This document shows, one piece after another, positions 11,814 to 26,629 of a DNA stretch of 64,000 bases. The DNA is taken from positions 20,953 through 84,952 of the forward strand of contig JAZOSR010000035.1 of NCBI GenBank assembly GCA_045657225.1, written 5' to 3'. Position numbers and translations under genes: made by a program. Origin of the DNA: Eubacteriales bacterium (lineage in GTDB: Bacteria > Bacillota > Clostridia > Oscillospirales > CAG-272). The notes beneath the pieces are model-generated. The model did no database searches. It was not told the origin of the DNA and worked only from the letters and a program-made list of their open reading frames with translations. Numbering within the stretch: the first letter of the stretch is position 1; the number at the start of each line of letters is the position of its first letter.

Positions 11814-11841
11814 CGCAAATGTCAACCCCCTATTTTAGAAA

Positions 11842-13197: not shown

Positions 13198-13203
13198 GGG
13201 ATT

Positions 13204-13232
13204 ATTATATCACACAAGCCCCTTCTTGTCAA
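13204..13232 (-). promoter_or_regulatory. consensus antisense promoter TTGACA-17-TATAAT convergent on peptide ORF A
   Basis: Minus strand: TTGACA (13227-13232), 17-nt spacer, TATAAT (13204-13209); the -10 lies in the loop of the hairpin after the ORF stop. Conserved in copy B. Confidence 0.65.
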
Positions 13233-13649
13233 GCCTTGGGGTGGAAAACCTTATCCGCGGTTTTCCCCAACACCACACCGTGGTGTCGGTGCCCCTTTCC
13301 CTGCGAGGTGTTTCATAACGCTCTCGCAAACTCAAAAGTGGGGTATATAACGGTTTTTCTAACTTTTCTCTGACACGCGGGGAGAAAACTTAAAAAAGCC
13401 GTTACATCTTCCCGAGGTCTAAACGACCTCGTTTTGATTTTACTCACTCGTTATGTAGCTCCGCTATCAAGGAAGTGAAGGCAAGGCGCAAGCGCCTTAC
13501 TTTCACTTCCCATTTCCATTTTTGGGGAGGCGCCGTCTGCGGACGGCGGCGCGGAGTTGGTTGCCGCGTACGTTCATCAACAGCGACCGGGGGCGGCTGA
13601 ATACCCCCGGGGTTGCAAAGCCGAACAGCAACGAAGGCAGGTGGAAAGG

Positions 13650-13763
13650 ATGGAGAACGTGAGCTTAAGCGACAAGGCAATACAACGGCTGATCGAGTTT
13701 CTCTCACGTGCCGGGTGGACCGACGCACAGATCCTTGATCTGATCAATTACGTAACGAAATAA
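13650..13763 (+). CDS. hypothetical 37-aa protein (MENVSLSDKAIQRLIEFLSRAGWTDAQILDLINYVTK)
   Basis: SD AGGTGGAAAGG before ATG 13650; followed by hairpin CGAGGAG...CTCCTCG. The 68-aa ORF-track start lies in GC-rich hairpin DNA and is unlikely. Confidence 0.5.
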   Translation: MENVSLSDKAIQRLIEFLSRAGWTDAQILDLINYVTK

Positions 13764-13919
13764 AAAATACCCGAGGAGCCCTAACTCCTCGAGTATTCCA
13801 CATATTGCAGATGGGGTGCGAGCCTGCCCGCATCCTGTCTGCCAACCCTGTATGCACAGTATACCACAAACAAATCTATTTGTCAAGCCCCGGGTTTTCC
13901 CGGGCGGAAAGGAAGAAAA

Positions 13920-14102
13920 ATGACCTATCAAGACCTGATCAGCGCCGGCATTGAGATCCAATGCCAAACCGTACTTTACTACTACGACTATAACCGGGAT
14001 AAGCGCGTGCTGCTTTCGCCTGCAGATGCAGCCGGCAAAGAGATCAGATACATGTACGTGGAGGACGACGTGCTTTACATCGAAGTGGAGGTGGAGCTAT
14101 GA
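13920..14102 (+). CDS. hypothetical 60-aa protein
   Basis: SD GGAAAGGAAG; stop overlaps next start (ATGA). Confidence 0.6.
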   Translation: MTYQDLISAGIEIQCQTVLYYYDYNRDKRVLLSPADAAGKEIRYMYVEDDVLYIEVEVEL

Positions 14103-14392
14103 ACGAATTCAATTTCAGCGTATTGATGAAGAAATCGCAAAACTACACGCCGAGCAGCTTGATGCACACCTATGCGCAGCAGCACCCGAGCGCAAGCTTT
14201 TGCTATGATCTGAACGGCAAGCCCTATCTGCTCATTGCCAACGTTCGCTATTACTACAAGCATTGGCGCATAATCGCCGTGTCGCCGAACAGCGAGATGG
14301 TAACCGTCTATCTCAACGATCCCCACGCACTTGTGCCTATGCCGGGCACAGAAGGTAATTGGGGTGAAAGACATTGGGGAGGTTTGAAATGA
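14099..14392 (+). CDS. hypothetical 97-aa protein
   Basis: SD GGAGGTGGAG; ATGA overlaps at both ends. Confidence 0.65.
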   Translation: MNEFNFSVLMKKSQNYTPSSLMHTYAQQHPSASFCYDLNGKPYLLIANVRYYYKHWRIIAVSPNSEMVTVYLNDPHALVPMPGTEGNWGERHWGGLK

Positions 14393-14550
14393 TCGAATTA
14401 TGGGTAAATTATTGGAGCGGAGATTTTTTCGTAGGACATTTTCCAGATATTACATCAGCTCAAAAATATTTTGAAGATCACAAGGAACGTTTTAGAGATT
14501 ATAGAGGTGAAAAATTTGGTTTCCCATACGCTACTCCATTTTTGCGCTAA
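14389..14550 (+). CDS. hypothetical 53-aa protein (MIELWVNYWSGDFFVGHFPDITSAQKYFEDHKERFRDYRGEKFGFPYATPFLR)
   Basis: Below ORF-track cutoff; found by reading on from the ATGA overlap at 14389-14392; SD GGGGAGG upstream. Confidence 0.55.
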   Translation: MIELWVNYWSGDFFVGHFPDITSAQKYFEDHKERFRDYRGEKFGFPYATPFLR

Positions 14551-14649
14551 AACAAAACATAATAGGGGGCGGTTTAACCGTCCCCGCCACCTCAAGCCCT
14601 ACTCCCTACCACTACCACATAGGGTGCTCTGCACCCGGAAAGGATTTTT

Positions 14650-14910
14650 ATGACAGAAGCTACTTACTACACCATCATACTTGTTTGTGTATCTGCTTTT
14701 GCCATTTTACATGGCATTAACTGCTTTATTCAAAGTCGAAAATATTACCAACTCACCATAGATGGTGAAACATTTCAAGTAGTATTTAATTTAGATATAA
14801 GCCGGTGGAGCAAAACCGTTACTTTCACAGATCTAAATTACATAGAGCACACTATGACTTACAACAGAATTGAACTCTATGAGATTAAGCTAAAGGAGCA
14901 TGACCAATGA
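14650..14910 (+). CDS. hypothetical 86-aa membrane-anchored protein
   Basis: SD GAAAGGA; N-terminal hydrophobic segment YYTIILVCVSAFAILHGINCFI. Confidence 0.6.
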   Translation: MTEATYYTIILVCVSAFAILHGINCFIQSRKYYQLTIDGETFQVVFNLDISRWSKTVTFTDLNYIEHTMTYNRIELYEIKLKEHDQ

Positions 14911-15002
14911 AATACTTCCTCCGTGCGCTTGAGATCCTCGGGATCCTCTCCTTCTCGCTTTTTGTGGGCTATCTGCTCTTTCTGATGGTCTACATCGTGT
15001 GA
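14907..15002 (+). CDS. hypothetical 31-aa hydrophobic micro-protein (MKYFLRALEILGILSFSLFVGYLLFLMVYIV)
   Basis: ATGA overlap with the preceding ORF; single predicted TM helix; ends 9 nt before the NTPase ATG. Confidence 0.5.
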   Translation: MKYFLRALEILGILSFSLFVGYLLFLMVYIV

Positions 15003-15011
15003 GGTGCTGCC

Positions 15012-17177
15012 ATGCTCAAGAAGCTCAAGCAAATCAACTACCGTCATTTCATTGCCGCCGGGCTGGTGCTCGGCTCGGCGGCGCTATGTGTGTTCGTTTA
15101 CAAGTACCCTTTGGTGCGTTTGTGGGAAAGCATCATTGCCTTCATCCGCGCGATCGCGTATTCCTTCATGGATCTCCTCGAGCTCCCCGAGGCGCCCGAG
15201 ATCACCCAGACCGTCAACGACTTTTCTCGGGTAGACCTCACCGGTGCGATCGGCATTGACGTTGACGAGCTCTGGCGGCGGCTCTCCGGGGTATGGTCCG
15301 AGATCTTTGTGTGGGAGCATTTTCAATACTATCTGATCTTCCTCTTGTGGCACTTCACGCGCTTCATGTATTACAGCTGCATTATCCTCTTGATCGGCGT
15401 CGTTGCCATCATTCCCGTCGTGCTTACGTGGGACGATATCAACAACGACTACAACCAGGATACCGTGCCCCTTGTGCTATTCAAGCGCTTTGTGGCAGCA
15501 CCCTGCAGGCGCGTGTTCACGTGGCTTCGGGATCTCCTGGTGTTCTTCCGTAGCTCACGATATTGGAGCTGGTTCGTGTTCGTGTGGCTCCTGAACTTCG
15601 GCGTGTTCTCGGTGGCGATCTCGTTCCTTGCCTATTACTTTTGGGCGCTGACCGCCTTTGATCTCTCCACCTTCGGCGTGCAGCTCGTCAAGCTGGCGGC
15701 GGATCTCTTGCTTATGCTGAACACGTTGCCATGGTACGCCTGGGCGGTGATCTTCGCACTCTTGTGGGATCTGTGGCGCCACCGCATTGCCGACGATAAG
15801 ATGCAGCACATGGAAGCACAAAACAAAGGGATGCTGAGCGAGATGCCCATGTGTGCCTTCGTAACGGCTCCGCCGCGTACCGGCAAGACCACGCTGATCA
15901 CCTCCATGGCGATCTCCTACGCCGCCATGTTTCGCCACAATGCCCTCGAGCTCATGACCGGGAACATGCACAAATATCCGCGCTTCCCCTGGATCAACTT
16001 TGAGCTCGATCTCAAGGACGCGATCAGAGCGCACTTCGTTTACAACCTCTATACCGCAAGGGAATGGGTCCGCACGTGGTGTGCCGGCTTCCTTGAGGAT
16101 CCTTGCCGGCAACGGCTGTGGGATTACAACATAGACCTCTATCCGACGGAATACAACGATCACCTTACCGTCACGCCGATCTGGAGAGCACTCGAGAACT
16201 ACGCCCAGGAGTTTTTTATCTACTTCATGCAAACCTCTATCCTGGTGTCTGCCTACTCGATCCGCGAGGACTTTATCTTTATTGACGAGGGGAACTTCCC
16301 GATCGTTGACACCAACTTCTTTGCGCGTGATCCCGCTGCCATCGAGGAGGACAGCAGCTACGCGCACGTCATCGACTACGACATGCTGCGTCTTGGCAAA
16401 AAAATGCTGGAGGACAACCCCAATATAGGCGCCCTCGAATTCGGCGTCGTGCTGATCCCGGAGGTAGACAAGGAGCGCAAGAACGATCTGCGTTTGCGCG
16501 AGCTGAAGCTAAAGGACGACGTCTGCACCCAAAAGAACGACCTATTTAACGAATGGATGAAGATGGCGGGGCAATCTGCCATGGTGGAGAATTTCTGCTT
16601 TTTGCGTATTCTTTCGGATGCACAACGGCCATCCTCCTGGGGCGCGGATGCGCGCGAGCTTTCGATCGTCTTGCACATTGACAAGAAGGGCGACGCTGCC
16701 AACGCCTTGCCGCTCTTCTGGGTGGAGAACGGACTTGTCGGCAAATACCTCTCCTGGTGGGATAGTGTATACGTGAACAGTCGCTTCAAATGGGGCAATA
16801 ACCGTCTGATCACGTGGCTGGGCGAGGGGCTCGGCTCCTTCCTTTATAGCTACCTCCTGCGGCGCAACAACGACTACGGCTATTGGCGGCAGAAGATCCA
16901 GAGCGAGAGCGGAACCCTTGAGAAAGAAAACCTCGAAGAATACAGCTACACGATCGCACGCAAAAAGGACTACGCCGAGCGCTTTGCCTCCGACCATTTC
17001 AAGTCCTACTCACAAATCCAGACCGCCGAGTGTCACGTGGGCCTCGGTGATCTGCCCGCTTACAACTCAATCTATCCCACGTTTGACGAAATGATCATCC
17101 AAAATTCGCACTTCTGCCGGGAACTCATTCAATACTTTGATATCGTACCGGCAGAGGAGAAAGGAGAAAGCAAATGA
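15012..17177 (+). CDS. polytopic-membrane P-loop NTPase (N-terminal ~270-aa multi-TM domain + C-terminal Walker A/B domain); DNA-translocase/assembly ATPase candidate
   Basis: 721 aa; at least four long hydrophobic stretches in residues 13-255; Walker A APPRTGKT at residues 286-293 (nt 15867-15890); Walker-B-like VVLIPEVDKE; no confident family assignment. Confidence 0.8.
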   Translation: MLKKLKQINYRHFIAAGLVLGSAALCVFVYKYPLVRLWESIIAFIRAIAYSFMDLLELPEAPEITQTVNDFSRVDLTGAIGIDVDELWRRLSGVWSEIFVWEHFQYYLIFLLWHFTRFMYYSCIILLIGVVAIIPVVLTWDDINNDYNQDTVPLVLFKRFVAAPCRRVFTWLRDLLVFFRSSRYWSWFVFVWLLNFGVFSVAISFLAYYFWALTAFDLSTFGVQLVKLAADLLLMLNTLPWYAWAVIFALLWDLWRHRIADDKMQHMEAQNKGMLSEMPMCAFVTAPPRTGKTTLITSMAISYAAMFRHNALELMTGNMHKYPRFPWINFELDLKDAIRAHFVYNLYTAREWVRTWCAGFLEDPCRQRLWDYNIDLYPTEYNDHLTVTPIWRALENYAQEFFIYFMQTSILVSAYSIREDFIFIDEGNFPIVDTNFFARDPAAIEEDSSYAHVIDYDMLRLGKKMLEDNPNIGALEFGVVLIPEVDKERKNDLRLRELKLKDDVCTQKNDLFNEWMKMAGQSAMVENFCFLRILSDAQRPSSWGADARELSIVLHIDKKGDAANALPLFWVENGLVGKYLSWWDSVYVNSRFKWGNNRLITWLGEGLGSFLYSYLLRRNNDYGYWRQKIQSESGTLEKENLEEYSYTIARKKDYAERFASDHFKSYSQIQTAECHVGLGDLPAYNSIYPTFDEMIIQNSHFCRELIQYFDIVPAEEKGESK

Positions 17178-17335
17178 CACAGCACAGCACAGCACAGCAC
17201 AGCACAGCACAGCACACCCTCGAGCGTGACATAAAGGACTATTTCAAGCTGCAGGTCGATCGGGATCCCGACGAGCTCGATCTCACCGAGATCTCCAAAG
17301 ACGTGCTTGAGATTATCAGACGTCATATAAAGTAA
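17174..17335 (+). CDS. hypothetical 53-aa protein with (CACAG)7 repeat in codons 2-13
   Basis: ATGA overlap with NTPase stop; MTQHSTAQHSTAQHTLERDIKDYFKLQVDRDPDELDLTEISKDVLEIIRRHIK. Confidence 0.55.
   Translation: MTQHSTAQHSTAQHTLERDIKDYFKLQVDRDPDELDLTEISKDVLEIIRRHIK
17178..17212 (+). repeat. perfect pentanucleotide tandem repeat (CACAG)x7
   Basis: Counted base by base from 17178 to 17212, followed by CACAC. Confidence 0.95.
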
Positions 17336-17363
17336 TACAATTCAAACGTTTAAATTGTATTAC
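17332..17363. promoter_or_regulatory. 32-nt near-perfect palindrome GTAATACAATT-CAAACGTTTA-AATTGTATTAC (terminator and/or operator upstream of the RHH gene)
   Basis: 11-bp perfect arms; one mismatched pair in the centre; 20 nt before the RHH gene ATG. Confidence 0.6.
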
Positions 17364-17382
17364 ATCCTTGTGAGGAGCGATT

Positions 17383-17619
17383 ATGTATAAACAAAGAGAT
17401 AAGCTAATCAGTATACGCGTCAATAGCAAGCTGTTGGAGCAAGTGAAAAAGATCATCGATGCCAAAACCGAGGTCAGAGAAGGTTGGGGTGCTCGTAAAA
17501 TTTATTACTACCGCGACGAAAAACGTCCCTATGAATATGATAAATTCACCATTGCAGATCTTCTCGAAGAAGCCATGGAAAAATACCTCGAGGAACAAAC
17601 ACCTTCAGCGCAAAAGTAA
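17383..17619 (+). CDS. ribbon-helix-helix (CopG/Arc-like) DNA-binding protein
   Basis: 78 aa; SD GAGGAG; N-terminal KLISIRVNSKLLEQVKKII fits the RHH beta-strand plus helix pattern. Confidence 0.7.
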   Translation: MYKQRDKLISIRVNSKLLEQVKKIIDAKTEVREGWGARKIYYYRDEKRPYEYDKFTIADLLEEAMEKYLEEQTPSAQK

Positions 17620-17667
17620 TACACGGCGCCGGAAATGTAATACACGGCGCCGGAAATGTAATACATC
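17616..17667 (+). repeat. 21-nt tandem direct repeat GTAATACACGGCGCCGGAAAT x2 plus partial third copy (iterons)
   Basis: 17616-17636 and 17637-17657 identical; 17658-17667 GTAATACATC. Confidence 0.9.
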
Positions 17668-17731
17668 ATTCAACGTCTGACAACGTATCACATTTAACCA
17701 GGGTTTTTGTATTACTTTGTGCGATCGCCAT

Positions 17732-17773
17732 ATGTAATACATTGCTGTGAGATCTCACTGCAATGTATTACAT
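17732..17773. repeat. 42-nt near-perfect palindrome ATGTAATACATTGC-TGTGAGATCTCACT-GCAATGTATTACAT
   Basis: Only one mismatched pair; carries two more GTAATAC boxes in inverted orientation. Confidence 0.8.
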
Positions 17774-17974
17774 ACTTAAGCAAACAAAAACAGCCCTCGG
17801 GCATTGCCCGGGGGCTTTTCACACTTTTGTGCATTTTGTATATTCAGAAGATCTATTTTGCGCTCCGATCGCCACGCTGCAGCGCAAGTTTTCTGTGTAT
17901 CTTGCACAACTCTCCCCGGGCTCACCCTAACCTCGTATTCACCCACTTGACACTCACGGGCTTGCATAATCCCC

Positions 17975-18111
17975 GAAAAAGGAAACAAACCCGAAGGGAG
18001 GTGATAAGATGCTATACGTACGTATATACAATTGGGTCAACGCTCATTACCACACGATCCTTGACCTAATTGTAATGCTACTCGCACACTTATAACCCCC
18101 AACGGGCTTGT
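17975..18111 (-). ncRNA. candidate cis-antisense (antitoxin-like) RNA B; ends approximate
   Basis: Starts downstream of the antisense -10; CCCTTCGGG hairpin plus TTTGTTTCCTTTTT run opposite the SD region. Confidence 0.4.
18009..18095 (+). CDS. 28-aa peptide, candidate type I toxin (copy B): MLYVRIYNWVNAHYHTILDLIVMLLAHL
   Basis: SD AGGGAGGTGATAAG; same length and frame as copy A; synonymous differences (AAC/AAT, CAC/CAT, ATT/ATC, GAT/GAC) argue for coding constraint. Confidence 0.55.
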   Translation: MLYVRIYNWVNAHYHTILDLIVMLLAHL

Positions 18112-18117
18112 GTGGTT

Positions 18118-18146
18118 ATTATATCATACAAGCCCAATCCTGTCAA
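18118..18146 (-). promoter_or_regulatory. consensus antisense promoter TTGACA-17-TATAAT convergent on peptide ORF B
   Basis: Minus strand TTGACA (18141-18146), 17 nt, TATAAT (18118-18123); same position relative to the hairpin as in copy A. Confidence 0.65.
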
Positions 18147-18176
18147 GTCCTCACCGGGGAGAGAGCTTTCGATCTA

Positions 18177-18362
18177 TTGACAATTTTCCCCTTTTGTGAT
18201 ATCCTTTTATTGTCACACAATTTCATCACAATCACAGGGGAAACTATCTTTGGTAAAAAGTGTTCCTCTCTTTTTCTCATACCCTTGTGGTTGTGGAATT
18301 GTGTGACAACAATGAGTGGACCACTTTTTCGGTGTGCCTCTCGTTGGAGGCACACTTTTTTA
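18177..18362 (+). ncRNA. candidate ~150-nt small RNA (promoter TTGACA-17-TATCCT to strong intrinsic terminator)
   Basis: TTGACA 18177-18182, TATCCT 18200-18205; terminator GTGTGCCTC-loop-GAGGCACAC (18332-18355) plus T6ATTTT; no SD-preceded ORF inside; contains ATTGTCACACAAT / ATTGTGTGACAA inverted boxes. Confidence 0.45.
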
Positions 18363-18379
18363 TTTTCGACATTTTTCAC

Positions 18380-18408
18380 TTGCACGTGCGCCTGCTTTTC
18401 GCTAAAAT
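18380..18408 (+). promoter_or_regulatory. promoter TTGCAC-17-TAAAAT for the zinc-ribbon/nuclease gene
   Basis: Read from sequence; 28 nt upstream of ATG 18436 (SD GGAGG). Confidence 0.6.
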
Positions 18409-18435
18409 ATTTTTATAAATGCTTGGAGGTTTATT

Positions 18436-19176
18436 ATGGCTGACAAACTTATTTGCCCGATCTGTGGCGAACCAACACGAATCTACATGGGAAACGCACG
18501 CAAGGACCGTCTTTGCGGCAAACATGCCGACATGCTTAAGGCAGGTGATCTGATCCTCGGCGAGGACGGAAAATTCACCCTCAAGGATGCACCAAAGCCG
18601 GAGCTGAAGGAGAGAGCTGCGGCAGAACCGGCAGCTGCTTCTGATCTGACGTGCATTATCTGCGGCGAGCCGAGTAATGGGAAGCATTTTTGTGTGAAAT
18701 GTTATCACAAATACAAAAACAAAATCATTTATCTAAAGATAAAAGATTGCGTAGAATATGAACCACTCGGTTATGAATATGAAAGTGATTTAGTATGCGA
18801 AGATGGTCACATTGTAAAAAGTGAACCCGAACGAAACATTGACAATTGGCTTTTCAATCACGATATTAAACATATTTATGAGAGAACTTATCAAGTAAAC
18901 GAAACCGTGAAATTGCGTCCTGACTGGTGCTTACCGGGTTACATCAAAGATGAAGATGGACGCCCTGTTGATGTTTATGTTGAATATTGGGGAATCGAAG
19001 GCAGTGCAAAATATGAAAATATAAAGAATTATAAACTTCCTATTTACCAACAAGAAGGATTAACGCTAATAAACATCAACGCCGAACAAGACAAACGAGA
19101 TATAAGTGCAGCTCTTGATTGGAAAGTTTGGAACAAGAAAAATATCAAACCCTATCGAATCAATTTTCTTAAATAA
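18436..19176 (+). CDS. double zinc-ribbon protein with C-terminal PD-(D/E)xK-like nuclease domain
   Basis: 246 aa; CPICG...CGKH and CIICG...CVKCYH motifs; C-terminal SEPERNIDNWL...YERTY...RPDWCLP...VYVEYWG...Y...K...Y resembles the restriction-endonuclease-like module seen at the N-terminus of some UvrD/helicase IV-like proteins (from memory). Confidence 0.75.
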   Translation: MADKLICPICGEPTRIYMGNARKDRLCGKHADMLKAGDLILGEDGKFTLKDAPKPELKERAAAEPAAASDLTCIICGEPSNGKHFCVKCYHKYKNKIIYLKIKDCVEYEPLGYEYESDLVCEDGHIVKSEPERNIDNWLFNHDIKHIYERTYQVNETVKLRPDWCLPGYIKDEDGRPVDVYVEYWGIEGSAKYENIKNYKLPIYQQEGLTLININAEQDKRDISAALDWKVWNKKNIKPYRINFLK

Positions 19177-19180
19177 GACC

Positions 19181-19214
19181 AAGGAGCTCGCCCAACTGGG
19201 CGAGCTCCTTTTGT
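19181..19214. terminator. bidirectional terminator between convergent genes
   Basis: AAGGAGCTCGCCC-AACT-GGGCGAGCTCCTT 13-bp stem, T-rich after. Confidence 0.8.
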
Positions 19215-19415
19215 TCATCGGAATTTTCTTCCGGCATTTTTAATGCCGAGATAATCCGCTTGTCCTGCCTTAATATGTGTTCCAAAGTGACTTCTTAGCA
19301 TAGCTTCCGATTCTCCATATTGATGAGCAGCAATACCAACGCCAATCCAATATGCACGACGTTGATCCGCAGAATACCTTTTTTTACTTTTGTAATTTTT
19401 TCTTGCTTTTGCCAT
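19215..19415 (-). CDS. hypothetical basic 66-aa protein
   Basis: SD AAAAGGAG 8 nt upstream of ATG; no family recognised. Confidence 0.65.
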   Translation of the reverse strand: MAKARKNYKSKKRYSADQRRAYWIGVGIAAHQYGESEAMLRSHFGTHIKAGQADYLGIKNAGRKFR

Positions 19416-19446
19416 AATTTTTCTCCTTTTATTTTTTAAAATAGGG

Positions 19447-19548
19447 TTGACAAATACCCGACTTTCGGATATACTATTAATGAGCTTGATTCTTCAAGCG
19501 CCGACTTGTGTCGGATAGATGGGGGAGAAAATCCCCCTTTTTTATTTT
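19447..19548 (+). ncRNA. candidate ~65-nt small RNA, antisense to the junction of two minus-strand genes
   Basis: Consensus-like promoter TTGACA (19447-19452)-17-TATACT (19470-19475); terminator GGGGGA-GAAAA-TCCCCC (19521-19537) plus T6ATTTT; internal CCGA..TCGG hairpin. Confidence 0.55.
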
Positions 19549-19997
19549 CGCCCTTTCATAGTTCTTAATCTTTTTCGGTTTGATTTCCCGTTTTTTCCGG
19601 AAATCAAATCTTTTTTTATGTTATTAACGTCCTTGATGGACATTTCGCTTGAAACACCCTTTCTTACAAATTTATGCCCTAATTTAATAGGTGCATCAGA
19701 ATCATCTAAAGTAAGAACAACCGGTCTATATTTTGATTTTCCCGATTGATAATTAGGCAATGCTTTCCCAGAAGACGTTCCAAGTTTAACAAGTGCCAAT
19801 TCATCAAAACGATTGCTGTCAACTACAACCGTTTTGCGATAGTTACCTTTTCCTTCATATCCAGGCTTACGATAGTTTTTTTGCCCTTTAAAATATTCAT
19901 CACGAGTATGTATAATAGTGCCATTAGGAATATTTCTCGAAACATTACGTTTAGGTTTTCCCGGATAATTTGATTTTTTGTTTGCCGTAAATATCAC
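19542..19997 (-). CDS. hypothetical very basic 151-aa protein
   Basis: Open frame with GTG start (SD AAGGAG abuts the start codon, so the exact start is uncertain); Lys/Arg/Gly/Asn-rich; no family recognised. Confidence 0.6.
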   Translation of the reverse strand: MIFTANKKSNYPGKPKRNVSRNIPNGTIIHTRDEYFKGQKNYRKPGYEGKGNYRKTVVVDSNRFDELALVKLGTSSGKALPNYQSGKSKYRPVVLTLDDSDAPIKLGHKFVRKGVSSEMSIKDVNNIKKDLISGKNGKSNRKRLRTMKGRK

Positions 19998-20078
19998 TCC
20001 TTTTGTTCAACTTGCTCTATCAGAGTGCCGTAGCTGCAGCGCGATCGCGCCGAGCTGCGGCACTCTTTGTTTTAAGAA

Positions 20079-22025
20079 TTATTCATTCTTATTTTCATTA
20101 TGTTTTCGGCTCTCTTTGTCCGCTCGTCTATCTCGTCGTCGCTGGCGTACTGCTGAATTTGTTGCACTGCACAAACGAATCACAGGAGGTAAAAAGAAAA
20201 TTGCCAAGATAATCAAAGCAATAATCAACATTAAAAAAACGATTTTCTTAATTGCTCCTTTTAATGCATCCAAAATATCCTGCCATAAGGAACTAGGTGT
20301 TTTTCCTACCCCCAAATCACCAACTATATCATATACAATACCATCACCAAAGCTATTTACGGTATTACTGACGGTAGGAATGACCACAGTGCCTCTTTTA
20401 CTTGTAAAAGCGATATGAGCAATAGATACGTTCAGCATCGCGCTTTTTTCGATGCTGTAACCAACGATAGGTCCTATATAAACCTGATCCATTTCCCATA
20501 CATCCTGAAGCAGTGTACAGCGGTAATCCGCAATTGCATAACGCAAAATTACAACCACCTCATCATTCATTGCAGCTTCTGCACAAACTTTAGAAAAGGC
20601 ATCAAGATCACAAGCATTGATAAAAAGGTTTTTGCTATATTCTGCATATTCACTTTGTAAAATTACACTGTAACTAACCGGGTTCTCAATGACCTCTATT
20701 TTTTTGCACTCTTTTAAGAAATCCTCCGTTAAATAAACGTCTTTATCGCCAAAAAGTCTTTGCCAAAAATTCGGTTCATATTTTCCGTGCGACATTTCAT
20801 AGGTTTCCAAATTGAACAAATCCTTATCGGTATAATCAATATCTAAGTTTCTCCTATACTCTGTATAGAGTGCGGATGCGTCAATACCCTTTGCAACCTG
20901 ATCCTTATAAAGCTTCTCCAACTTCTCTGAAGTAAAAGCTGTCATTTGACTCAAATCGCCCAAATCAAAATCCTCGGGTATGGCGTTGCTTTCGATTAAG
21001 TAAGCCAAACGTTCATAAATAAGAGCGTTTCTATAATCATCAAAAATGTTTTCCTTATCCGTATAAATCCAATCGGCATAATGATATCCTCCACTAAGAG
21101 GAATTTCTTCTTTTATAAATTTATCACCCGCCACCAAATCCATTACGTCAGTATCCTCTGTAATTTTTTGACCGTTTTGAATCATATTACGTGTAACATC
21201 ATCAAAAACGCCTTCACGTGTCACGATAATCGGTGTCAGTTTTACAGAATCATAGCTCGCGCGAATGGAAGAAATATATCCGTATCGCTCCAAAACACTT
21301 TTTTTTACCTTAAAATAAACCGAATGGATTTCATAATGGTCATATTCATCGGAAAGATTACCGTCAACGGTTTTGCCGGCGTTCGGGCTCACCCACGTAG
21401 TATCGTACAGCTTAATTGGCAAAACCTCGCCGTCGCGCACCTCGCAATTCAAGCTTTTATCGAAATCATATCCCGTAAAGATATACATACGGGATATCAC
21501 AAACTCCTGAATCTCGCCCTCTTTTGAAAGAAAAATGCCGGGAATATTATACACACGCTCGCCGGGATTTTCATGCAGGCTCCAAAGCTGCTTTACCACG
21601 TTGCTACCATACGACGTTACCTTATATTTCAAAAAACGGTTATCATTGCTTTTTGAAGCCAACTCCAGACCGTAAAAGTTATATGCCGCTACCACCATAT
21701 TCAAACCAAACTCTACGTGATCATCCGGAGAATTTTCAAATTTAATGCAACCGGGATTATACAAGTAAATGTAAAAGCCGTAATTTGAAGAATTGGTAAT
21801 GCTTTTAAAGCCTACTTCGGCTACAAAAAGCACCTCCACGTCCGTACGCGATTGATCCACGGGATATTTACTTTGATCAAACGGTTCTCCGTTTATTTTT
21901 AGTTGCGCAAGCTCTTTCATTACCACGCTATCATCCGTTGCCGCATCGACGGCGGCTGATGCGCTCATACAAAACACACTCAGCAACGATAAAAGCGCCA
22001 ACATAAGCGCCAATATTTTTTCCAT
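20079..22025 (-). CDS. secreted protein with N-terminal signal peptide and C-terminal TM anchor plus Arg/Lys tail (adsorption/spike-like topology)
   Basis: Start moved to MEKILALMLALLSLLSVFCMSASA (SD AAAGGAGAAGGG). C-terminus IVFLMLIIALIILAIFFLPPVI then RQRRRDRRADKESRKHNENKNE. Confidence 0.8.
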   Translation of the reverse strand: MEKILALMLALLSLLSVFCMSASAAVDAATDDSVVMKELAQLKINGEPFDQSKYPVDQSRTDVEVLFVAEVGFKSITNSSNYGFYIYLYNPGCIKFENSPDDHVEFGLNMVVAAYNFYGLELASKSNDNRFLKYKVTSYGSNVVKQLWSLHENPGERVYNIPGIFLSKEGEIQEFVISRMYIFTGYDFDKSLNCEVRDGEVLPIKLYDTTWVSPNAGKTVDGNLSDEYDHYEIHSVYFKVKKSVLERYGYISSIRASYDSVKLTPIIVTREGVFDDVTRNMIQNGQKITEDTDVMDLVAGDKFIKEEIPLSGGYHYADWIYTDKENIFDDYRNALIYERLAYLIESNAIPEDFDLGDLSQMTAFTSEKLEKLYKDQVAKGIDASALYTEYRRNLDIDYTDKDLFNLETYEMSHGKYEPNFWQRLFGDKDVYLTEDFLKECKKIEVIENPVSYSVILQSEYAEYSKNLFINACDLDAFSKVCAEAAMNDEVVVILRYAIADYRCTLLQDVWEMDQVYIGPIVGYSIEKSAMLNVSIAHIAFTSKRGTVVIPTVSNTVNSFGDGIVYDIVGDLGVGKTPSSLWQDILDALKGAIKKIVFLMLIIALIILAIFFLPPVIRLCSATNSAVRQRRRDRRADKESRKHNENKNE

Positions 22026-22082
22026 CCCTTCTCCTTTCCACAAGAAGGCCTGCGACCTATCGTCGCACGCCTTCCCCTGTTC

Positions 22083-22568
22083 TTATTCAATTACCGTAAA
22101 GTAAATAAATTTTAACGCCGCGCTATTGAAGCTACCCGTATATTCCATCAGCACAATCGCATATCTACCGGGCGTAAACGTCGGATCGCCACTACCTTCA
22201 TAATTGCTTTCCATATGATCAAACACATTGGTTGCATTGCCGGAACCTGCCCCAAGCAACGTTTCACTCTCGCCATCGCGCAAAGCGCCAACACGCCAAT
22301 AAGCCATACGGTCGGTGAACTCTCCATCACGGTAAACCATTACACGATCAAGCGGATTGAACGTTGTTACGGTAACCAAAATTGGCTCTCCCTCTTTATA
22401 CACATCCTTACTGGTATAAATTGAACGTGTGCGAGGATTGGCCGACACGTTGATGATTGTGCCCTCATCCTTTTGTACGTTTTGCTGCTGCAGCATTTTA
22501 CCTGCCACTAACGTGCCGCCAAACGACAACAGAAGCACAAGAACACACAAGACTATGCGCTTCCACAT
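22083..22568 (-). CDS. hypothetical signal-anchored/secreted 161-aa protein
   Basis: N-terminal hydrophobic segment IVLCVLVLLLSFGGTLVAG; beta-rich remainder. Confidence 0.75.
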   Translation of the reverse strand: MWKRIVLCVLVLLLSFGGTLVAGKMLQQQNVQKDEGTIINVSANPRTRSIYTSKDVYKEGEPILVTVTTFNPLDRVMVYRDGEFTDRMAYWRVGALRDGESETLLGAGSGNATNVFDHMESNYEGSGDPTFTPGRYAIVLMEYTGSFNSAALKFIYFTVIE

Positions 22569-22571
22569 AAT

Positions 22572-23135
22572 TTACTTCCAGAACTCTACCAAGTCCTCAA
22601 CGGAAGTACCTACGCAGAGAATGGGCTTAATTTTGACGTTATTCAGGCTGCAATCCTCAGCAAGAACAAGCTCAAGCTTCACGGTGATATCCTCGACCAG
22701 CTCGTCGCCGGGAATCACAACCGTAGAATTGTAACAGCTCTTTACCTCAGCGTCATTGTTGACGTTCGTCAGCTTCAAATACGCGGTGCCCTTAGAACCG
22801 TTCATGCCGGAATTAAAAACGTATGAAGTACCCTTTTTCAGCGTATACGTACCAATCGGAATGCTCGTTGCTTCCTCAGCCGTGCCGCTTACCTTGATGA
22901 TATTATCATCATCAATCGATACGGTCACACCGTTCTCTCCACCGGAAAGCACGCCGTCATCATCTGCAAAATTCATTGCCTGATACAGGTTGTCCTCGTT
23001 TACCTCGCGCAGCTGCCACTCGGTAGGATCCATGTTTTGGAAACCCTTGGAAAGATTACCGATCAGGATCAGACCGGTACAGGCAACCAGGACGATTGCC
23101 ACCATCGTTGCGATCATTTTTCTTTTTGCTCTCAT
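22572..23135 (-). CDS. hypothetical signal-anchored/secreted 187-aa protein
   Basis: SD AAGGAG; N-terminal MIATMVAIVLVACTGLILIG; beta-rich remainder. Confidence 0.75.
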   Translation of the reverse strand: MRAKRKMIATMVAIVLVACTGLILIGNLSKGFQNMDPTEWQLREVNEDNLYQAMNFADDDGVLSGGENGVTVSIDDDNIIKVSGTAEEATSIPIGTYTLKKGTSYVFNSGMNGSKGTAYLKLTNVNNDAEVKSCYNSTVVIPGDELVEDITVKLELVLAEDCSLNNVKIKPILCVGTSVEDLVEFWK

Positions 23136-23261
23136 TTTTTGTTTTCTCCTTTTTTGTTAAAATTTGATTTTTTATACGCCCATCGGGCTACTTGAAACGC
23201 CGGGAAAATACTTGAATTTTTCGCCCTGCTTGCGGGCGGTGCATCATGTTCACCTTCCTTC

Positions 23262-23293
23262 AATGAAAAATGGGTGGGGACGTATCCCCACCC
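23262..23293 (-). terminator. intrinsic terminator after the 101-aa gene
   Basis: Minus strand GGGTGGGGA-TACG-TCCCCACCC followed by ATTTTTCATT. Confidence 0.7.
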
Positions 23294-23372
23294 AAGTTCA
23301 ATGCGCTGTGGGGCAGCGCTATTGACAGATCAGATACACAACCGCCCCCACTGCAATTGTGCTTTTCGGATA

Positions 23373-23678
23373 TCACGCCGACTTTACGGGCTCGATCTTG
23401 ATATCCATCTTTGCCTTGCCGATCACACGAACCTCGCAAAGCGTGGCAACCGTACGGGTGCCGAACTGCTCGATCAGATACTCGAAATCACAGTAATCGC
23501 CGATCATGATATTGGAAATATCAAAACGGACGAAAACCGCTTCCACCTTCTGACCCTGCTCGCCGTCTGCCTGCTGCGCGGGCTTGTCCCAAAGCACGTG
23601 CAACGTGCGTGACATCTTTTGCTCGCCGTCCTTTTCGTAAGAACGCTCCTGCTTGCCTACAATAATCCCTTTTCTCAT
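23373..23678 (-). CDS. hypothetical 101-aa protein
   Basis: SD AAGAGGT; no family recognised (a single-stranded-DNA-binding role would fit the context but is unsupported). Confidence 0.7.
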   Translation of the reverse strand: MRKGIIVGKQERSYEKDGEQKMSRTLHVLWDKPAQQADGEQGQKVEAVFVRFDISNIMIGDYCDFEYLIEQFGTRTVATLCEVRVIGKAKMDIKIEPVKSA

Positions 23679-23718
23679 TTTCTTTACCTCTTTTCTTTAT
23701 GTATTTTTTTAGGGAATA

Positions 23719-25149
23719 CTAAAATGAATTATCGACACACTCAAAACAAGCAATTTTCGAACCATCACGAAAGTAAGCTCTAATCACAAAAATTTCCGTG
23801 CCGTTTATTACAGCGTCAGGCGCAATTAATTCACCATTCTCGTAACGAAATGTTGTACCATTTTCCAGAAGAACTTTATAGTAAAGCAAAACATCAAAAC
23901 GATTTCCGCCATTATCATAAATTTCATCAGTAAGCGTATTCATTACGACAAACCGTACCGCAACATTTAAACGCTGCCCAGGTATCATCACAGTAAACGG
24001 ACGATCAAGAAGCTCTTGATTAGATACTATATCTACAATTTGATGCTTGTATATTAATCGCTTGTTAAGTAACGATTCCAAGACACTTTCATCTGCATTT
24101 TCATAACCGTTAAAAATGCCTGCAGTAATATTTGCACTGACCATTAAAGCCCTATTGCATTCATCCAAAGCAATTTCACTATAGGAATTGCCACTTATTG
24201 TACTACCTGTATATAATGCCTTAGAACAAACATACGCATAAGAGGAAGCGTATGTCAAAAAGCTTTCTCCATACGGAACAAAAGCATATTGACGAACGGA
24301 TTTTTCCCCAAATTCCGCATAAGGAATTGCAACTATCACACGATTCGTATTTAACATTTTAATTCGTATCAAATAAGTGCGAAGCAACATTTCATTTAAG
24401 CCTTGTTCTTCACTGCAATTTAAGATCTCGTAATTACGACCTAATGTTAACTCTTCATTTTTAGAAAACTCCACAACCCAATCGACCACGGCAGTCATCG
24501 AACTTATTTTTTGCACCTCATCAATAGGAGCCAATAACATCTTAAACACACCACCTGCAGATACTACGTTTTGATAAAAAGTAGTATCTACATGCGCCAG
24601 AAATTTAATGCCGCCGTATTCTCCCATAGAAGCTTCGTTATAAGCAAATTCAGACGGCATCAAATAAAAGTCATTACTTGTATATGGCACAACATCCTTA
24701 TCCGCTGTAGGCGAAGAAATAGGATTAACCTTTATTTTACAGTTGGCTTCCATACCATCATAACGAAGTGTAACAATAGCCTCTCCGACTCCCACACCTT
24801 TTACGATAAAACCGTTTGCAACAGGACCGGATTCACCAATCGTTATATTTTGTTCAACAAAAACTATATCAGAGGCAGAAGATTCATATTCCCAAGGTAA
24901 TGTAACGTCCTTATGCGTCAGTTGAACGTCTATCAACCAGCTCTCTCCCAAAGTCAATTGCTTTTCCGTAGTTTGAATGACAAGCTTCGAATTAATGCTT
25001 ACCGAGCCCTGCAAATCCACAACAGAATTCTCCCGATGCATCATATATTCTTTAAGACTTTGAATCAAATTAACGGCTAAAATAATCAAAAAAACAAGTA
25101 AAACAGCCGTTACTAACAAAACAACAATTTTTTTTCGCTTTGCACTCAT
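23719..25149 (-). CDS. membrane-anchored protein with Ig-like (Big_2-type) domain
   Basis: Start set to MSAKRKKIVVLLVTAVLLVFLIILAV, whose ATG overlaps the Rep stop (ATGA). Segment DIVFVEQNITIGESGPVANGFIVKGVGVGEAIVTLRYDGMEANCKIKV resembles bacterial Ig-like group 2 domains. Confidence 0.8.
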   Translation of the reverse strand: MSAKRKKIVVLLVTAVLLVFLIILAVNLIQSLKEYMMHRENSVVDLQGSVSINSKLVIQTTEKQLTLGESWLIDVQLTHKDVTLPWEYESSASDIVFVEQNITIGESGPVANGFIVKGVGVGEAIVTLRYDGMEANCKIKVNPISSPTADKDVVPYTSNDFYLMPSEFAYNEASMGEYGGIKFLAHVDTTFYQNVVSAGGVFKMLLAPIDEVQKISSMTAVVDWVVEFSKNEELTLGRNYEILNCSEEQGLNEMLLRTYLIRIKMLNTNRVIVAIPYAEFGEKSVRQYAFVPYGESFLTYASSYAYVCSKALYTGSTISGNSYSEIALDECNRALMVSANITAGIFNGYENADESVLESLLNKRLIYKHQIVDIVSNQELLDRPFTVMIPGQRLNVAVRFVVMNTLTDEIYDNGGNRFDVLLYYKVLLENGTTFRYENGELIAPDAVINGTEIFVIRAYFRDGSKIACFECVDNSF

Positions 25150-26414
25150 TTTTTGTTTTTTCCTTTGCACTTGTAACAAATTCCAAAATTACTATCCGAT
25201 TCTACATGATCGAAAGCATGTATCGGCTTTACTTCCTGGCACTTTGCGCACAAAATTTGCTGCACACCGTTCCATATTTGAGGGCCCGGACGAGAGAACA
25301 CCGTAAACCACGGGGAGCGCTCCTCGTTTTGCTTCTGATCATTCAGCCATTCAAGCGCAATGTCCGTTTCGTTGCTCTCGCAATACTCGCGGATCATATC
25401 CGCATCAAGCTTGTCCTCATACTTGCCATGCTGGTGTATCAGATCTATGTATTTTGACGTCTGCTCGATCTGTCTTGCTTGTATCAGCTCGAAAAATTTT
25501 GTCGGGCCTAATATGGTAATTGCCGCATCAATGGCGTTACCGGCATTATTTTGCACAAAATTGACCATACGCTCCAGGTTATAGCCCTTGCCGGGCTTAC
25601 GGTACAAGGAAAGCTTTTCGGCATCCTGCAAAAACGCTTGCCAATACGGAAAACGGTGCCAAACCATTTTCTTGGGGTTGCCGCGCGCGGCGACCTCGTA
25701 ACCGTAATCAAGATAGTTTTCCATCACCCCACGGAACGCTTGTCCGAGCGTCAGCGGCGCCTCGATCTGTGTCACAGGGTCCTTGCCTATGAGGTACTTA
25801 ACAAACTCAAGCGCGCGATCGTCGCGCAGCTGCAGCTCGCAACGTACCCAGTGGGGAATGCTCTCCTTCACCTTTTCACGGTCCTCACGGCCGCGCATTT
25901 TGGAAATGCGCTCCTGCAGCTTATCGTAGATACGCACCAACAGCAACGACTTGGGTGATCCTATATCACACGACAAGCCGTTTGTGGATTCTATCACCTG
26001 GGCATAATCGGTTTTGGCTTTATATTTGTGGTTGCGCGGGCGCGTATCATCGCAAATGCGCTCAATATCCAAAACGCCGGTAAAATCATCGTAAGCAATA
26101 TCAAGACGTGTCAACTTCATAGCATTTTCGGGCTTCATTAAAGCCGCGAAAATCACGTCGTAGCTCTTATGGCTGGATTCACTTTCAAATGTGCGGCAGC
26201 CTTGACCCGAAAACTCACACCAAACGTTGTCTTGTGTGCCTCCATAATGTATGGAGATAGACCCATTATAGAAACGAGCACCATATCCGCGCACTCCTCG
26301 GTCGATCAATTGCCACCCTGAAGTAATCCCGATCAATTCCATCATATCCTCGGGGGTCATGGTCTTGCTCGTAATCGAAAGCCAGTCAATAAGAATACCG
26401 TTCTTATACTCCAT
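25146..26414 (-). CDS. rolling-circle replication initiator, Rep_trans family (PF02486-like), with C-terminal zinc ribbon
   Basis: 422 aa; IDWLSIT, RLDIAYD, IGSPKSLLLVRIYDK, VRCELQLRD motifs in the order typical of Rep_trans initiators/relaxases; C-terminal CAKC...CYKC. Confidence 0.9.
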   Translation of the reverse strand: MEYKNGILIDWLSITSKTMTPEDMMELIGITSGWQLIDRGVRGYGARFYNGSISIHYGGTQDNVWCEFSGQGCRTFESESSHKSYDVIFAALMKPENAMKLTRLDIAYDDFTGVLDIERICDDTRPRNHKYKAKTDYAQVIESTNGLSCDIGSPKSLLLVRIYDKLQERISKMRGREDREKVKESIPHWVRCELQLRDDRALEFVKYLIGKDPVTQIEAPLTLGQAFRGVMENYLDYGYEVAARGNPKKMVWHRFPYWQAFLQDAEKLSLYRKPGKGYNLERMVNFVQNNAGNAIDAAITILGPTKFFELIQARQIEQTSKYIDLIHQHGKYEDKLDADMIREYCESNETDIALEWLNDQKQNEERSPWFTVFSRPGPQIWNGVQQILCAKCQEVKPIHAFDHVESDSNFGICYKCKGKNKK

Positions 26415-26573
26415 TTTTCGCGGTACCCCCTACGACAGTGTTTTGAAGATCTGTACCCCCCTGTTAGCGGGGGGGCACCGCCCGCCCTCCGCCGCGCTTC
26501 GCGCGGCTTCGAGCGGGCATTTTTCGCCTCTCATTCGCTCCTTTGACTTTCTAAAATAGATTTTAACATTCAA

Positions 26574-26588
26574 ATTTTGTAGATATTT
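26574..26588 (+). repeat. right copy of 15-bp direct repeat ATTTTGTAGATATTT (candidate attR / element end)
   Basis: Exact match to 11799-11813. Confidence 0.8.
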
Positions 26589-26600
26589 TGCTAAAAGCTC

Positions 26601-26629
26601 TTGACAAAGAAATAAAAAAAAGTTAAAAT
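26601..26629 (+). promoter_or_regulatory. tig promoter TTGACA-17-TAAAAT
   Basis: TTGACA 26601-26606, 17-nt spacer, TAAAAT 26624-26629; SD GGAGGA and ATG 26667 downstream. Confidence 0.7.

Follow-up and report, generated by a model that had tools for sequence, protein, structure and literature searches.

A small integrative rolling-circle element of gut Clostridia with a conserved surface-protein and membrane-NTPase module

Why should a gut bacterium carry, directly beside a gene for a rolling-circle replication initiator, a run of genes whose products nearly all appear to be secreted or anchored in the membrane? The locus belongs to an Eubacteriales bacterium (Oscillospirales, CAG-272; assembly GCA_045657225.1, contig JAZOSR010000035.1), and the whole stretch that we analysed, 64,000 nucleotides (nt) long, is called the window here; coordinates are positions within it unless a relative is named. 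The original prediction, made from the letters of the DNA, saw in the block at 20079-25149 the makings of a non-tailed virion or a surface transfer apparatus. Our analysis supports the view that the block is part of a discrete mobile element, with its own ends, transposase, replication initiator (Rep) and origin-like region, and not a set of host cell-wall genes. We regard it as a small integrative rolling-circle element with what looks like a membrane export module, and there is a substantial chance that it stands for a virus lineage, or a transfer machine, that is new.

Where does the element begin and end? It occupies 11818-26570, 14,753 bp that hold the entire surface block, and its margins carry the following features.

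11800-11816: left flanking direct repeat, TTTTGTAGATATTTCGC, 17 nt, on the host side
11818-11841: left terminal inverted repeat, AATGTCAACCCCCTATTTTAGAAA, adjoining the transposase stop codon
11842-12900, minus strand: IS30-family DDE transposase of 352 amino acids (aa), facing outward
25146-26414, minus strand: rolling-circle replication initiator Rep, 422 aa, with Rep_trans and Rol_Rep_N domains
26415-26547, minus strand: origin-like region in which GC hairpins are conserved, among them CCCCCCTGTTAGCGGGGGGG at 26456-26475
26548-26570: right terminal inverted repeat, where the homology of relatives ends
26575-26591: right flanking direct repeat, TTTTGTAGATATTTTGC, in the promoter region of the trigger-factor gene

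The direct repeat, TTTTGTAGATATTTYGC, has just these two copies in the 64-kb window. The inverted repeats are an imperfect pair of 23-24 nt with a core, CTATTTTAGAAA, that is unique in the window, and it is exactly at the right-hand one that homology to relatives, followed upstream of Rep, comes to an end. Relatives sit in differing host contexts, at unrelated chromosomal sites. One of them, locus L097, has 15-nt flanking direct repeats of its own (5443-5457 and 22034-22048 of that locus) in another host context. Repeats of 15-17 nt, as in these two elements, are far longer than the target duplications of classical IS30 elements, which measure 2-3 bp. A promoter-like TTGACA-17-TAAAAT follows the right direct repeat at 26601-26629, and the two insertions, each immediately upstream of a promoter-like host sequence (...AGCT[CA]TTGACAAAG), suggest site-selective integration into promoter regions. 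Scans of the window for tRNA genes and Rfam families returned no matches, and therefore no tRNA attachment site.

The transposase matches PHROG 4646, a transposase family, at 1.6e-98, while its Pfam matches, rve and HTH_38, are weak and fall under the curated cut-offs. A tblastn search found no second IS30 copy in the window. Since it adjoins the left end, and since a 353-aa transposase that is 49-50% identical occupies the same edge in L097 and L098 beside unrelated host genes, it is probably the integrase of the element. At the other end, the call of a rolling-circle Rep in the 422-aa gene proved right: Pfam finds Rep_trans (PF02486) at 5.4e-30, 104.9 bits against a cut-off of 29.6, and Rol_Rep_N at 2.2e-8, 34.6 bits against 23.7. 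This Rep is 39.7% identical (E 9e-65) to that of a gut inovirus, the 6.6-kb fecal Bajarodino virus 34. The best plasmid Rep is 37.5% identical, the other plasmid matches listed reach 27% at most, and 67 PLSDB records match in all. The region between Rep and the right end is conserved up to the end of the element in L004, L006, L007 and L009; its DNA fold energy of -33.4 kcal/mol (z = -3.4) is better than that of all 200 shuffles, and it is probably the double-strand origin.

What, then, does the surface block itself contain? Its genes, all on the minus strand, are these.

20079-22025, minus strand: p648, 648 aa, with a signal peptide, beta-rich ectodomain, C-terminal transmembrane (TM) helix and Arg/Lys tail; its ATG has a ribosome-binding site, AAAGGAG, 7 nt upstream
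22083-22568, minus strand: p161, 161 aa, N-terminally anchored or secreted, with a hydrophobic N terminus
22572-23135, minus strand: p187, 187 aa, N-terminally anchored and extracytoplasmic; families 11 and 4 of the census given below
23271-23294, minus strand: terminator-like hairpin between p101 and p187, a 10-bp stem with 7 GC pairs, then a run of T
23373-23678, minus strand: p101, 101 aa, cytoplasmic, with no hydrophobic segment, between p476 and p187
23719-25149, minus strand: p476, 476 aa, N-terminally anchored (around residue 13) and extracytoplasmic; its start codon overlaps the stop codon of Rep (ATGA)

In p648, the largest of these proteins, the C-terminal hydrophobic segment lies near residue 590 and is followed by the Arg/Lys tail, and the layout of signal peptide, ectodomain, TM helix and basic tail recurs in all 16 of the close homologues that we aligned. 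Among 78 p648-like proteins of the wider family, 75 have a C-terminal TM helix within their last 110 residues, the tails have a median length of 17 aa and a net charge of +4, and none has an LPxT[GAN] motif in those last 110 residues. The AlphaFold2 model (predicted local distance difference test score, pLDDT, 77; predicted TM-score 0.73) gave no significant Foldseek match in PDB or BFVD, viral structures included: the best hits, E 0.014 in PDB and 0.005 in BFVD at a TM-score of 0.10, were generic beta-sandwiches. A word-seeded search with p648 reached 17 clusters only, and in the census it falls in family 1, which has 54 members. We consider p648 a candidate host-recognition or adsorption protein. 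The likeness to filamentous-phage g3p and to viral spikes that had been proposed for it extends to topology and to a gene order, found in most loci, in which p648-like genes precede a membrane NTPase, but not to sequence or fold homology with g3p, the pleolipovirus spike VP4 or ORF1 of the plectrovirus SpV1.

The four genes said to encode signal peptides or anchors (476, 187, 161 and 648 aa) are all present as open reading frames (ORFs), each with an N-terminal hydrophobic segment. They are not consecutive, however, nor is the block given over wholly to secreted or anchored proteins, for p101 stands among them. A crude measure of hydropathy also gives 7 of the 18 flanking ORFs a hydrophobic 19-mer at the N terminus, so a run of four anchored proteins is not in itself improbable. 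Its meaning comes from the conservation of the arrangement across dozens of loci. The order Rep, 480 aa, 101 aa, 188 aa and about 650 aa is kept in L002-L009. Within it p101, 52-83% identical, is the most conserved small protein of the Rep_trans-type elements; its gene position suggests that it may bind single-stranded DNA, and profile searches matched it neither to PDB sequences nor to gpV of M13. Upstream of the p648-like gene, L002-L010 and L097 carry homologues of p187 that are 37-64% identical. By contrast, p161 is a singleton in the census, has no tblastn match in any locus and is unique to the window element. As for p476, it is 37% identical to the 480-aa protein of L004. The immunoglobulin-like Big_2 segment predicted in it went undetected by Pfam at E<=0.1. 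Of 19 related anchored proteins, five do contain Big_2, the best at 2.5e-6, and the L004 orthologue gives a weak match. A p476-like protein in L006 (11926-14526 of that locus) is an unusual modular surface protein: 866 aa long, extracytoplasmic and anchored, it ends in a long region of many Cys-rich repeats of the CxxC type.

The surface block faces a second set of genes. The two modules of the element are convergent and meet at a terminator: on the minus strand Rep, p476, p101, the terminator-like hairpin, p187, p161, p648, p151 and p66; on the plus strand several small ORFs, a mini-protein, the nucleoside triphosphatase (NTPase), further small ORFs and p246.

14907-15002, plus strand: 31-aa mini-protein with a single TM helix, MKYFLRALEILGILSFSLFVGYLLFLMVYIV, directly upstream of the NTPase
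15012-17177, plus strand: orphan polytopic membrane P-loop NTPase, 721 aa, with about 4-5 N-terminal TM helices and then the P-loop domain
19181-19210: bidirectional terminator hairpin, a 13-bp stem, 9 of its pairs GC, that scores on both strands
19215-19415, minus strand: p66, a small basic protein (ORF translation)
19542-19997, minus strand: p151, 151 aa, Lys/Arg-rich, a conserved partner downstream of p648

In the NTPase, a Walker A motif, PPRTGKTT, at residues 286-293 is separated by a long helical insert of about 190 residues from a Walker B-like VVLIPEVDKE near 478-487. No family in Pfam, PHROG, NCBIfam or PADLOC takes it in, and its AlphaFold model (pLDDT 76) draws only generic P-loop matches from PDB in Foldseek, at E>=0.2. 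When 43 NTPases of its family were scanned singly at E<=1, the result was scattered P-loop matches and no Zot; one of the 43 touched FtsK_SpoIIIE, at E=0.18. A representative search with the NTPase returned full-length family members only, with no bridge to a known family. The mini-protein before it, 45% identical in L010, has a basic N terminus and lacks a basic C terminus; hydrophobic mini-ORFs were found in 46 of 86 loci, most of them abutting the NTPase start and sharing a GY[FL] motif. On the other strand, homologues of p151 lie between the p648-like gene and the NTPase in nine loci (for example at 9218-9730 of L013), with no family match in Pfam, PHROGs, NCBIfam or PADLOC, and p66 has no homologue among the loci examined.

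This NTPase is anything but rare. Its family comprises 1301 clusters at 50% identity, 661 of them at E<=1e-30, with 514 loci in the species-representative genomes of GTDB and at least 435 in metagenome contigs. The hosts are mainly Clostridia (Christensenellaceae, Oscillospiraceae, Lachnospiraceae), joined by Anaeroplasmataceae, Ca. Coproplasma and Ca. Pelethenecus, with Mollicutes-like gut bacteria among them, and one carrier, Pumilibacter intestinalis CLA-AA-M10 (L082), is in culture. A search for descriptions of the NTPase and p648 family in the literature found none. The NTPase had no match among 72,556 PLSDB plasmids, and a phage collection, searched at the nucleotide level and by tblastn, yielded a single virome scaffold, unannotated, that matches the NTPase, and nothing that matches p648. 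Two small observations concern viromes. Positions 13782-13847 of the window (66 bp) are 85% identical to a scaffold of 8.9 kb from a human fecal virome, unannotated and labelled 'Bacteriophage sp.' (MT836750.1), and the NTPase is 33% identical to another scaffold of the same study (MT835493.1, 57 kb).

For a census we clustered the ORFs of 88 NTPase loci into families and assigned Rep and integrase types by a Pfam scan of one representative per family. A p648-like protein, with signal peptide and C-terminal TM helix, is encoded in 81 of the 88, at a median of 2.2-2.5 kb upstream of the NTPase and in most loci on the same strand, and across loci N-anchored proteins of 160-360 aa precede it. The replication and integration genes behave quite differently. 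Rep is of G2P type in 41 loci, Rep_OBD with a helicase in 17 and Rep_trans in 6, while the integrase is IS30-like in 32, rve/IS481-like in 9 and a tyrosine recombinase in 5. The surface proteins and the NTPase are the constant core, around which replication and integration modules are interchangeable, a pattern that small non-tailed viruses show as well.

Some relatives also assemble as circles. L032 closes as a circle of 13,013 bp through an overlap of 141 nt, and L127 as one of 14,521 bp through an overlap of 55 nt; the gene set is the same again, with nothing in either that resembles a capsid or a secretion system. (A further contig of 13,013 bp, L149, was considered as a rotated copy of the L032 circle and rejected as unrelated.) A longer contig, L011 (Logan contig SRR12711118_11588, 19,852 bp), runs from a G2P-type Rep through a lysogeny module with tyrosine integrase and S24 repressor into genes found at the far left of the integrated L010, and its ends coincide by arithmetic; this gene order suggests a circular 19.8-kb form of a larger member that bears the lysogeny module. 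Several genomes hold two loci each: UMGS1072, UMGS509, RGIG3987, MGBC110736, HGM11445, SUG2045 and fecal_MAG_382, as two copies or as different family members. On CAJUSA010000004.1 two NTPase genes, L052 and L053, lie 14 kb apart as an apparent tandem pair, which recalls the tandem prophages of filamentous phages.

Equally informative is what the searches did not find. Of all element proteins, only Rep, the transposase and p246 had matches when scanned against Pfam, PHROGs, NCBIfam and PADLOC. In keeping with what had been predicted, the Pfam and PHROGs scans found no capsid, portal or terminase family, and no lysis family either, among element proteins longer than 95 aa. Representatives of the ten commonest neighbour families likewise gave no capsid, portal, terminase, tail, lysis or type IV secretion families; no holin, endolysin or peptidoglycan hydrolase turned up in the window or the neighbour families by Pfam and PHROGs; and profile searches of PDB sequences produced no match.

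How might such an element move between cells? The explanation we favour, tentatively, is that the module assembles the element into a capsid-less particle and exports it without lysis, as the export and host-recognition module of a virus-like element. We lean toward it because the surface and NTPase core is constant, Rep and the integrase are swappable, lysis genes are absent and circular forms occur. The element would insert by its own outward-facing IS30-type DDE transposase and replicate as a rolling circle from the hairpin origin beside its Rep_trans initiator. It would then leave the cell in a particle assembled at the membrane, filamentous or membrane-derived, the DNA inside being presumably that of the element. 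On the particle p648 would be a type-I membrane protein, its ectodomain outside for host recognition or adsorption and its Arg/Lys tail inside, with p476, p187 and p161 as N-anchored accessory surface proteins. The mini-protein and the NTPase could act together as an ATP-driven assembly and export machine, perhaps a functional analogue of the arrangement of g3p, small protein and pI (Zot) in filamentous phages, and p151, p66 and possibly p101 may handle the DNA. Between the window and L004 the identity is 37% for p476, 57% for p648 and 82% for Rep, and such faster divergence of the surface proteins may speak for a particle too.

Several points weigh against export in a particle. The NTPase has its TM domain at the N terminus and some 190 residues between Walker A and Walker B, unlike pI/Zot. 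The major coat protein of an inovirus is a protein of 40-90 aa, or about 30-90 aa when taken loosely, with a TM helix and a basic C terminus. Nothing typical of it was found in the element, where the 31-aa mini-protein beside the NTPase is the one candidate to turn up. Several large anchored proteins of the element have no inovirus counterparts. The core structural and assembly proteins show no detectable sequence or fold homology to any virion protein. The hosts are mostly of the walled, Gram-positive type, for which we know of no established case of membrane-particle budding. Only two IMG/VR contigs carry the NTPase, against 514 loci in genomes, and some relatives bear genes typical of conjugative plasmids, ArdC-like (L097 and L098), PcfJ and DUF3102, along with SprT-like genes.

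It helps to set the element beside systems that are better understood. Among its closest parallels are the filamentous phages of gut Bacillota (Tubulavirales/Inoviridae: Bajarodino virus 34 and the Dulem viruses; the Enterocloster inoviruses, PMC10061712). They share the homologous Rep_trans initiator, a small genome that is circular or integrated, the lack of capsid, terminase and lysis genes, and integration by diverse recombinases. They share as well an order in which a large protein with hydrophobic N terminus and C-terminal TM helix is followed by a small protein and a membrane P-loop ATPase; on the circle of Bajarodino virus 34 a 441-aa protein of this kind directly precedes Zot. The differences are just as plain: the NTPase has the opposite domain order and no detectable homology to pI/Zot, p648, whose topology matches, has no homology to g3p or the inoviral 441- and 545-aa proteins, there are extra large anchored Ig-like proteins, and the genome is about twice as large. 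A pI/Zot-like morphogenesis ATPase is the marker by which Roux et al. 2019 (PMC6813254) recognised inoviruses, and the NTPase of our element lacks that likeness.

Direct profile tests against M13, SpV1, plasmavirus L2, HRPV-1 and two gut inoviruses leave Rep as the sole link. The NTPase aligned to M13 pI with an hhalign probability of 3.5% and matched neither of the two gut inovirus Zot proteins by hmmsearch, and p648 showed no homology to M13 g3p or to the 441- and 545-aa proteins. For HRPV-1 the hhalign probabilities were 0.08% (VP4) and 0.5% (VP8), and for L2 0.1% (the envelope protein ORF13) and 0.5% (ORF1). ORFs of SpV1 gave only noise against the element profiles in hmmsearch; its ORF2 aligned to the NTPase at the P-loop alone, with 9.5% in hhalign.

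The plectrovirus SpV1-R8A2B (X51344) nevertheless has a matching set of parts. Its ORF1, 715 aa, has a signal peptide and a C-terminal TM helix, its ORF2 has N-terminal TM helices and then a P-loop, many small hydrophobic ORFs accompany them, and ORF3 is an IS30-family transposase 27% identical to that of the window, the only homologous part of SpV1. Its hosts are related to Bacillota, and carriers of the NTPase family also include Anaeroplasmataceae and Ca. Coproplasma. On the other side, ORF1 has no detectable homology to p648, and SpV1 has no recognised Rep_trans. Pleolipoviridae and Plasmaviridae resemble the element in having genomes of 7-17 kb, one spike protein, internal membrane proteins, a putative NTPase and a non-lytic habit (PMC12642806). 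Pleolipoviridae have a conserved five-gene cluster that includes the spike VP4, annotated with a signal peptide in HRPV-1, and the NTPase VP8; ORF1 of HRPV-1 is a putative Rep, and rolling-circle replication has been proposed for circular pleolipovirus genomes (PMC12642806). These viruses differ in infecting archaea or wall-less bacteria, and VP4, VP8 and ORF1 and ORF13 of L2 have no homology to proteins of our element.

A more recent case comes from Dehalococcoides, where the capsid-less IME1 elements have been proposed to be budding or filamentous double-stranded DNA viruses and are the dominant component of viromes in which filamentous particles also occur (Nesbo et al., bioRxiv 2026, 10.64898/2026.09.15.751708). 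Like our element they are integrated or episomal and lack a capsid, with a central ATPase, several TM and signal-peptide proteins, some with adhesion domains, and a conserved central module flanked by variable modules for integration and replication. Unlike it they measure 21-28 kb, are restricted to Chloroflexota, have a pI-like ATPase and replicate by a primase-helicase in place of an HUH Rep. IME1, unlike the window element, has particle evidence, and it is a recent precedent in which reasoning of this kind was borne out by viromes and electron microscopy. A bolder form of the particle hypothesis, which we hold more loosely still, would make the element a new lineage, at family level or higher, of capsid-less, non-lytic viruses that infect Gram-positive-type gut anaerobes across hundreds of species, assembled and exported by an unrecognised polytopic NTPase unrelated to pI/Zot and attaching by a type-I protein of new fold. 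Nearly as new would be a machine of the other kind, in which this module transfers DNA with a single ATPase.

The main rival, which we think less likely, is a novel and minimal conjugation-like apparatus acting from cell to cell. Rep would be a relaxase-like nickase, the NTPase the sole DNA translocase, in the manner of a coupling protein or of actinomycete TraB, and p648 and the Ig-like proteins mating adhesins. Rep_trans proteins do include the MobT relaxases of integrative conjugative and mobilisable elements (ICEs and IMEs) of Bacillota, MobT is the sole NCBIfam match of our Rep, and a MobT gene is among its plasmid matches; that match, at 2.6e-14, scores 52.9 bits, far under the 600-bit cut-off. 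Elements of this MobT/Rep_trans type, and the actinomycete ICEs (AICEs) with their TraB, are likewise small and integrative, with an initiator or relaxase of the rolling-circle type and a membrane NTPase, and like some of our relatives they may bring ArdC-like anti-restriction genes. The SprT-like, PcfJ and DUF3102 genes of relatives point the same way, as do a size of 13-20 kb, which fits integrative mobilisable elements, and the rarity with which virus-detection pipelines flag these elements. The NTPase, with N-terminal TM helices and then a domain with a long helical insert, is laid out much like the coupling proteins TrwB and VirD4. Homology does not follow that resemblance: TrwB, VirD4, VirB4 and FtsK are missing from its best 50 PDB Foldseek matches, and the window and neighbour families hold no VirB4, VirD4/FtsK/TcpA, VirB6-like, VirB8/TcpC-like or peptidoglycan-hydrolase family, the one faint FtsK_SpoIIIE hit aside. 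The want of plasmid matches to the NTPase tells against conjugation too, and many relatives have initiators of G2P/phiX or Rep_OBD type; we know of no conjugative relaxase of the G2P type.

Less probable again is that this is an integrative rolling-circle plasmid or transposon that relies for its spread on conjugative elements or helper phages and whose surface proteins and NTPase serve the carrier cell in adhesion, surface exclusion, membrane partitioning or maintenance. Rep, transposase and origin would suffice for maintenance and for mobility within a genome, homology reveals nothing that could be recognised as a transfer function, anchored proteins with Ig-like domains are common among the adhesins of bacteria, and Rep has its plasmid relatives. 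Cargo, however, should vary while the replication and integration genes persist, and the census shows the reverse, with the surface proteins, mini-protein and NTPase constant and Rep and integrase swapped. The arrangement is kept in Christensenellaceae, Oscillospiraceae, Lachnospiraceae and Anaeroplasmataceae, the frequent presence of several copies in a genome, as with L052 and L053, argues for autonomous horizontal spread, and the NTPase is absent from every PLSDB plasmid.

One group of tailed phages bears on the last alternative. The IScream phages, prophages of gut Clostridia, are bound by IS30 genes at both ends, the second often truncated, and have a reported content of phage-like structural and lysis genes (Wirbel, Hickey et al., Nature 2025, PMC12823448); with our element they share an outward IS30-family transposase at the edge, an apparent integrase, and a circular excised form, whereas ours has one IS30 gene, a bare inverted repeat at its other end and no recognisable phage structural genes. 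That the block is ordinary host envelope or adhesin genes, or a decayed tailed prophage of this or another kind beside Rep, is largely refuted and very improbable: a signal peptide, C-terminal hydrophobic segment and basic tail look superficially like a sortase substrate, and the outward IS30 gene is what defines IScream phages, but LPXTG is absent from all 78 family proteins, the genes lie inside an inverted-repeat-bounded element carried to unrelated chromosomal sites, phage structural and lysis genes are lacking, there is one IS30 copy instead of two, and complete circular relatives are just 13-14.5 kb.

Base composition had been offered as a sign of mosaic origin, and here the picture is mixed. 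The block at 20079-25149 is AT-rich, with a GC content of 0.413 against a mean of 0.495 (standard deviation 0.024, minimum 0.450) for all 392 windows of the same size outside the element. The bias is uneven: p648 (0.39) and p476 (0.37) account for the low values, while p161, p187 and p101 (0.46, 0.48 and 0.52) are similar to Rep (0.48), and the NTPase stands at 0.55. At third codon positions the GC content is 0.755 in the NTPase, 0.30 in p476 and 0.24 in p151, against about 0.57 in the host. Because the orthologues of p648 and p476 are AT-rich in every relative examined (0.37-0.44 in L004, L006, L097 and L010), including L006 and L097, whose flanking host genes have 57-59% GC, their low GC is a trait that these fast-evolving genes have conserved, and it does not testify to a recent import. 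AT-richness is thus weak evidence for a mosaic, and the better case for one lies in the Rep and integrase types exchanged between relatives.

The plus-strand module holds some further features.

13058-13233, plus strand: repeated cassette, copy A, with a perfect ribosome-binding site, a 28-aa ORF and a hairpin; 76% identical to copy B
17972-18147, plus strand: repeated cassette, copy B, with a 28-aa ORF and a hairpin, upstream of p246
18436-19176, plus strand: p246, 246 aa, a CxxC zinc ribbon with a PD-(D/E)xK nuclease-like domain; PADLOC HEAT_CxxC_PD-DEXK at 5.6e-11

The last of these, p246, also matches PDC-S69 at 1.2e-16 over residues 114-227 and, weakly, Pfam DZR_2, and it has homologues in 26-27 related loci. 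The cassette is a unit of about 170-176 nt with an invariant GGAGGTGATAAGATG, which contains the ribosome-binding site and start codon, then an ORF of 28-29 aa and, a few bases past its stop codon, a conserved hairpin, CGGGCTTGTG...CACAAGCCCG. Both the reading frame and the peptide motif, M.Y.RI.N[WF]V....LLD[LI]IA[KQ].L.IL, are conserved. Besides the two copies in the window there are three in L097 (6760-6926, 9357-9569 and 12640-12812) and others in L003, L006, L017 and L019, located at the starts of transcription units; the cassette might serve as a leader-peptide or attenuator device, or else encode a small protein that is highly expressed. The GC-rich segment that holds the NTPase lies between the two copies, which hints at cassette-mediated exchange of modules between elements from hosts differing in GC. 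Straight after the NTPase stop codon, at 17178-17216, comes a perfect tandem repeat (CACAG CACAG...) that encodes a repeated 'QHSTAQHSTAQH' at the start of a 53-aa ORF (17174-17335), and this ORF is 72% identical in L006.

What does the finding mean for these bacteria and their mobile elements? That an IS30 transposase can serve as an integrase is known already from the IScream prophages (PMC12823448); the present element extends this use by gut prophages to a non-tailed class. The NTPase and its constant partners lie outside Pfam, PHROG, NCBIfam and PADLOC and have no significant Foldseek match. Virus and plasmid detection based on hallmark genes would overlook elements of this kind, and an abundant mobile element of the gut may thus be invisible in surveys. 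With a carrier in culture, Pumilibacter intestinalis CLA-AA-M10, the question is directly testable. Should transfer prove to be by contact, it would be a new minimal mechanism of conjugation. Should particles be formed, the family would enlarge the chronic, non-lytic viruses of Gram-positive anaerobes by a major group and provide a new assembly ATPase to set beside pI/Zot.

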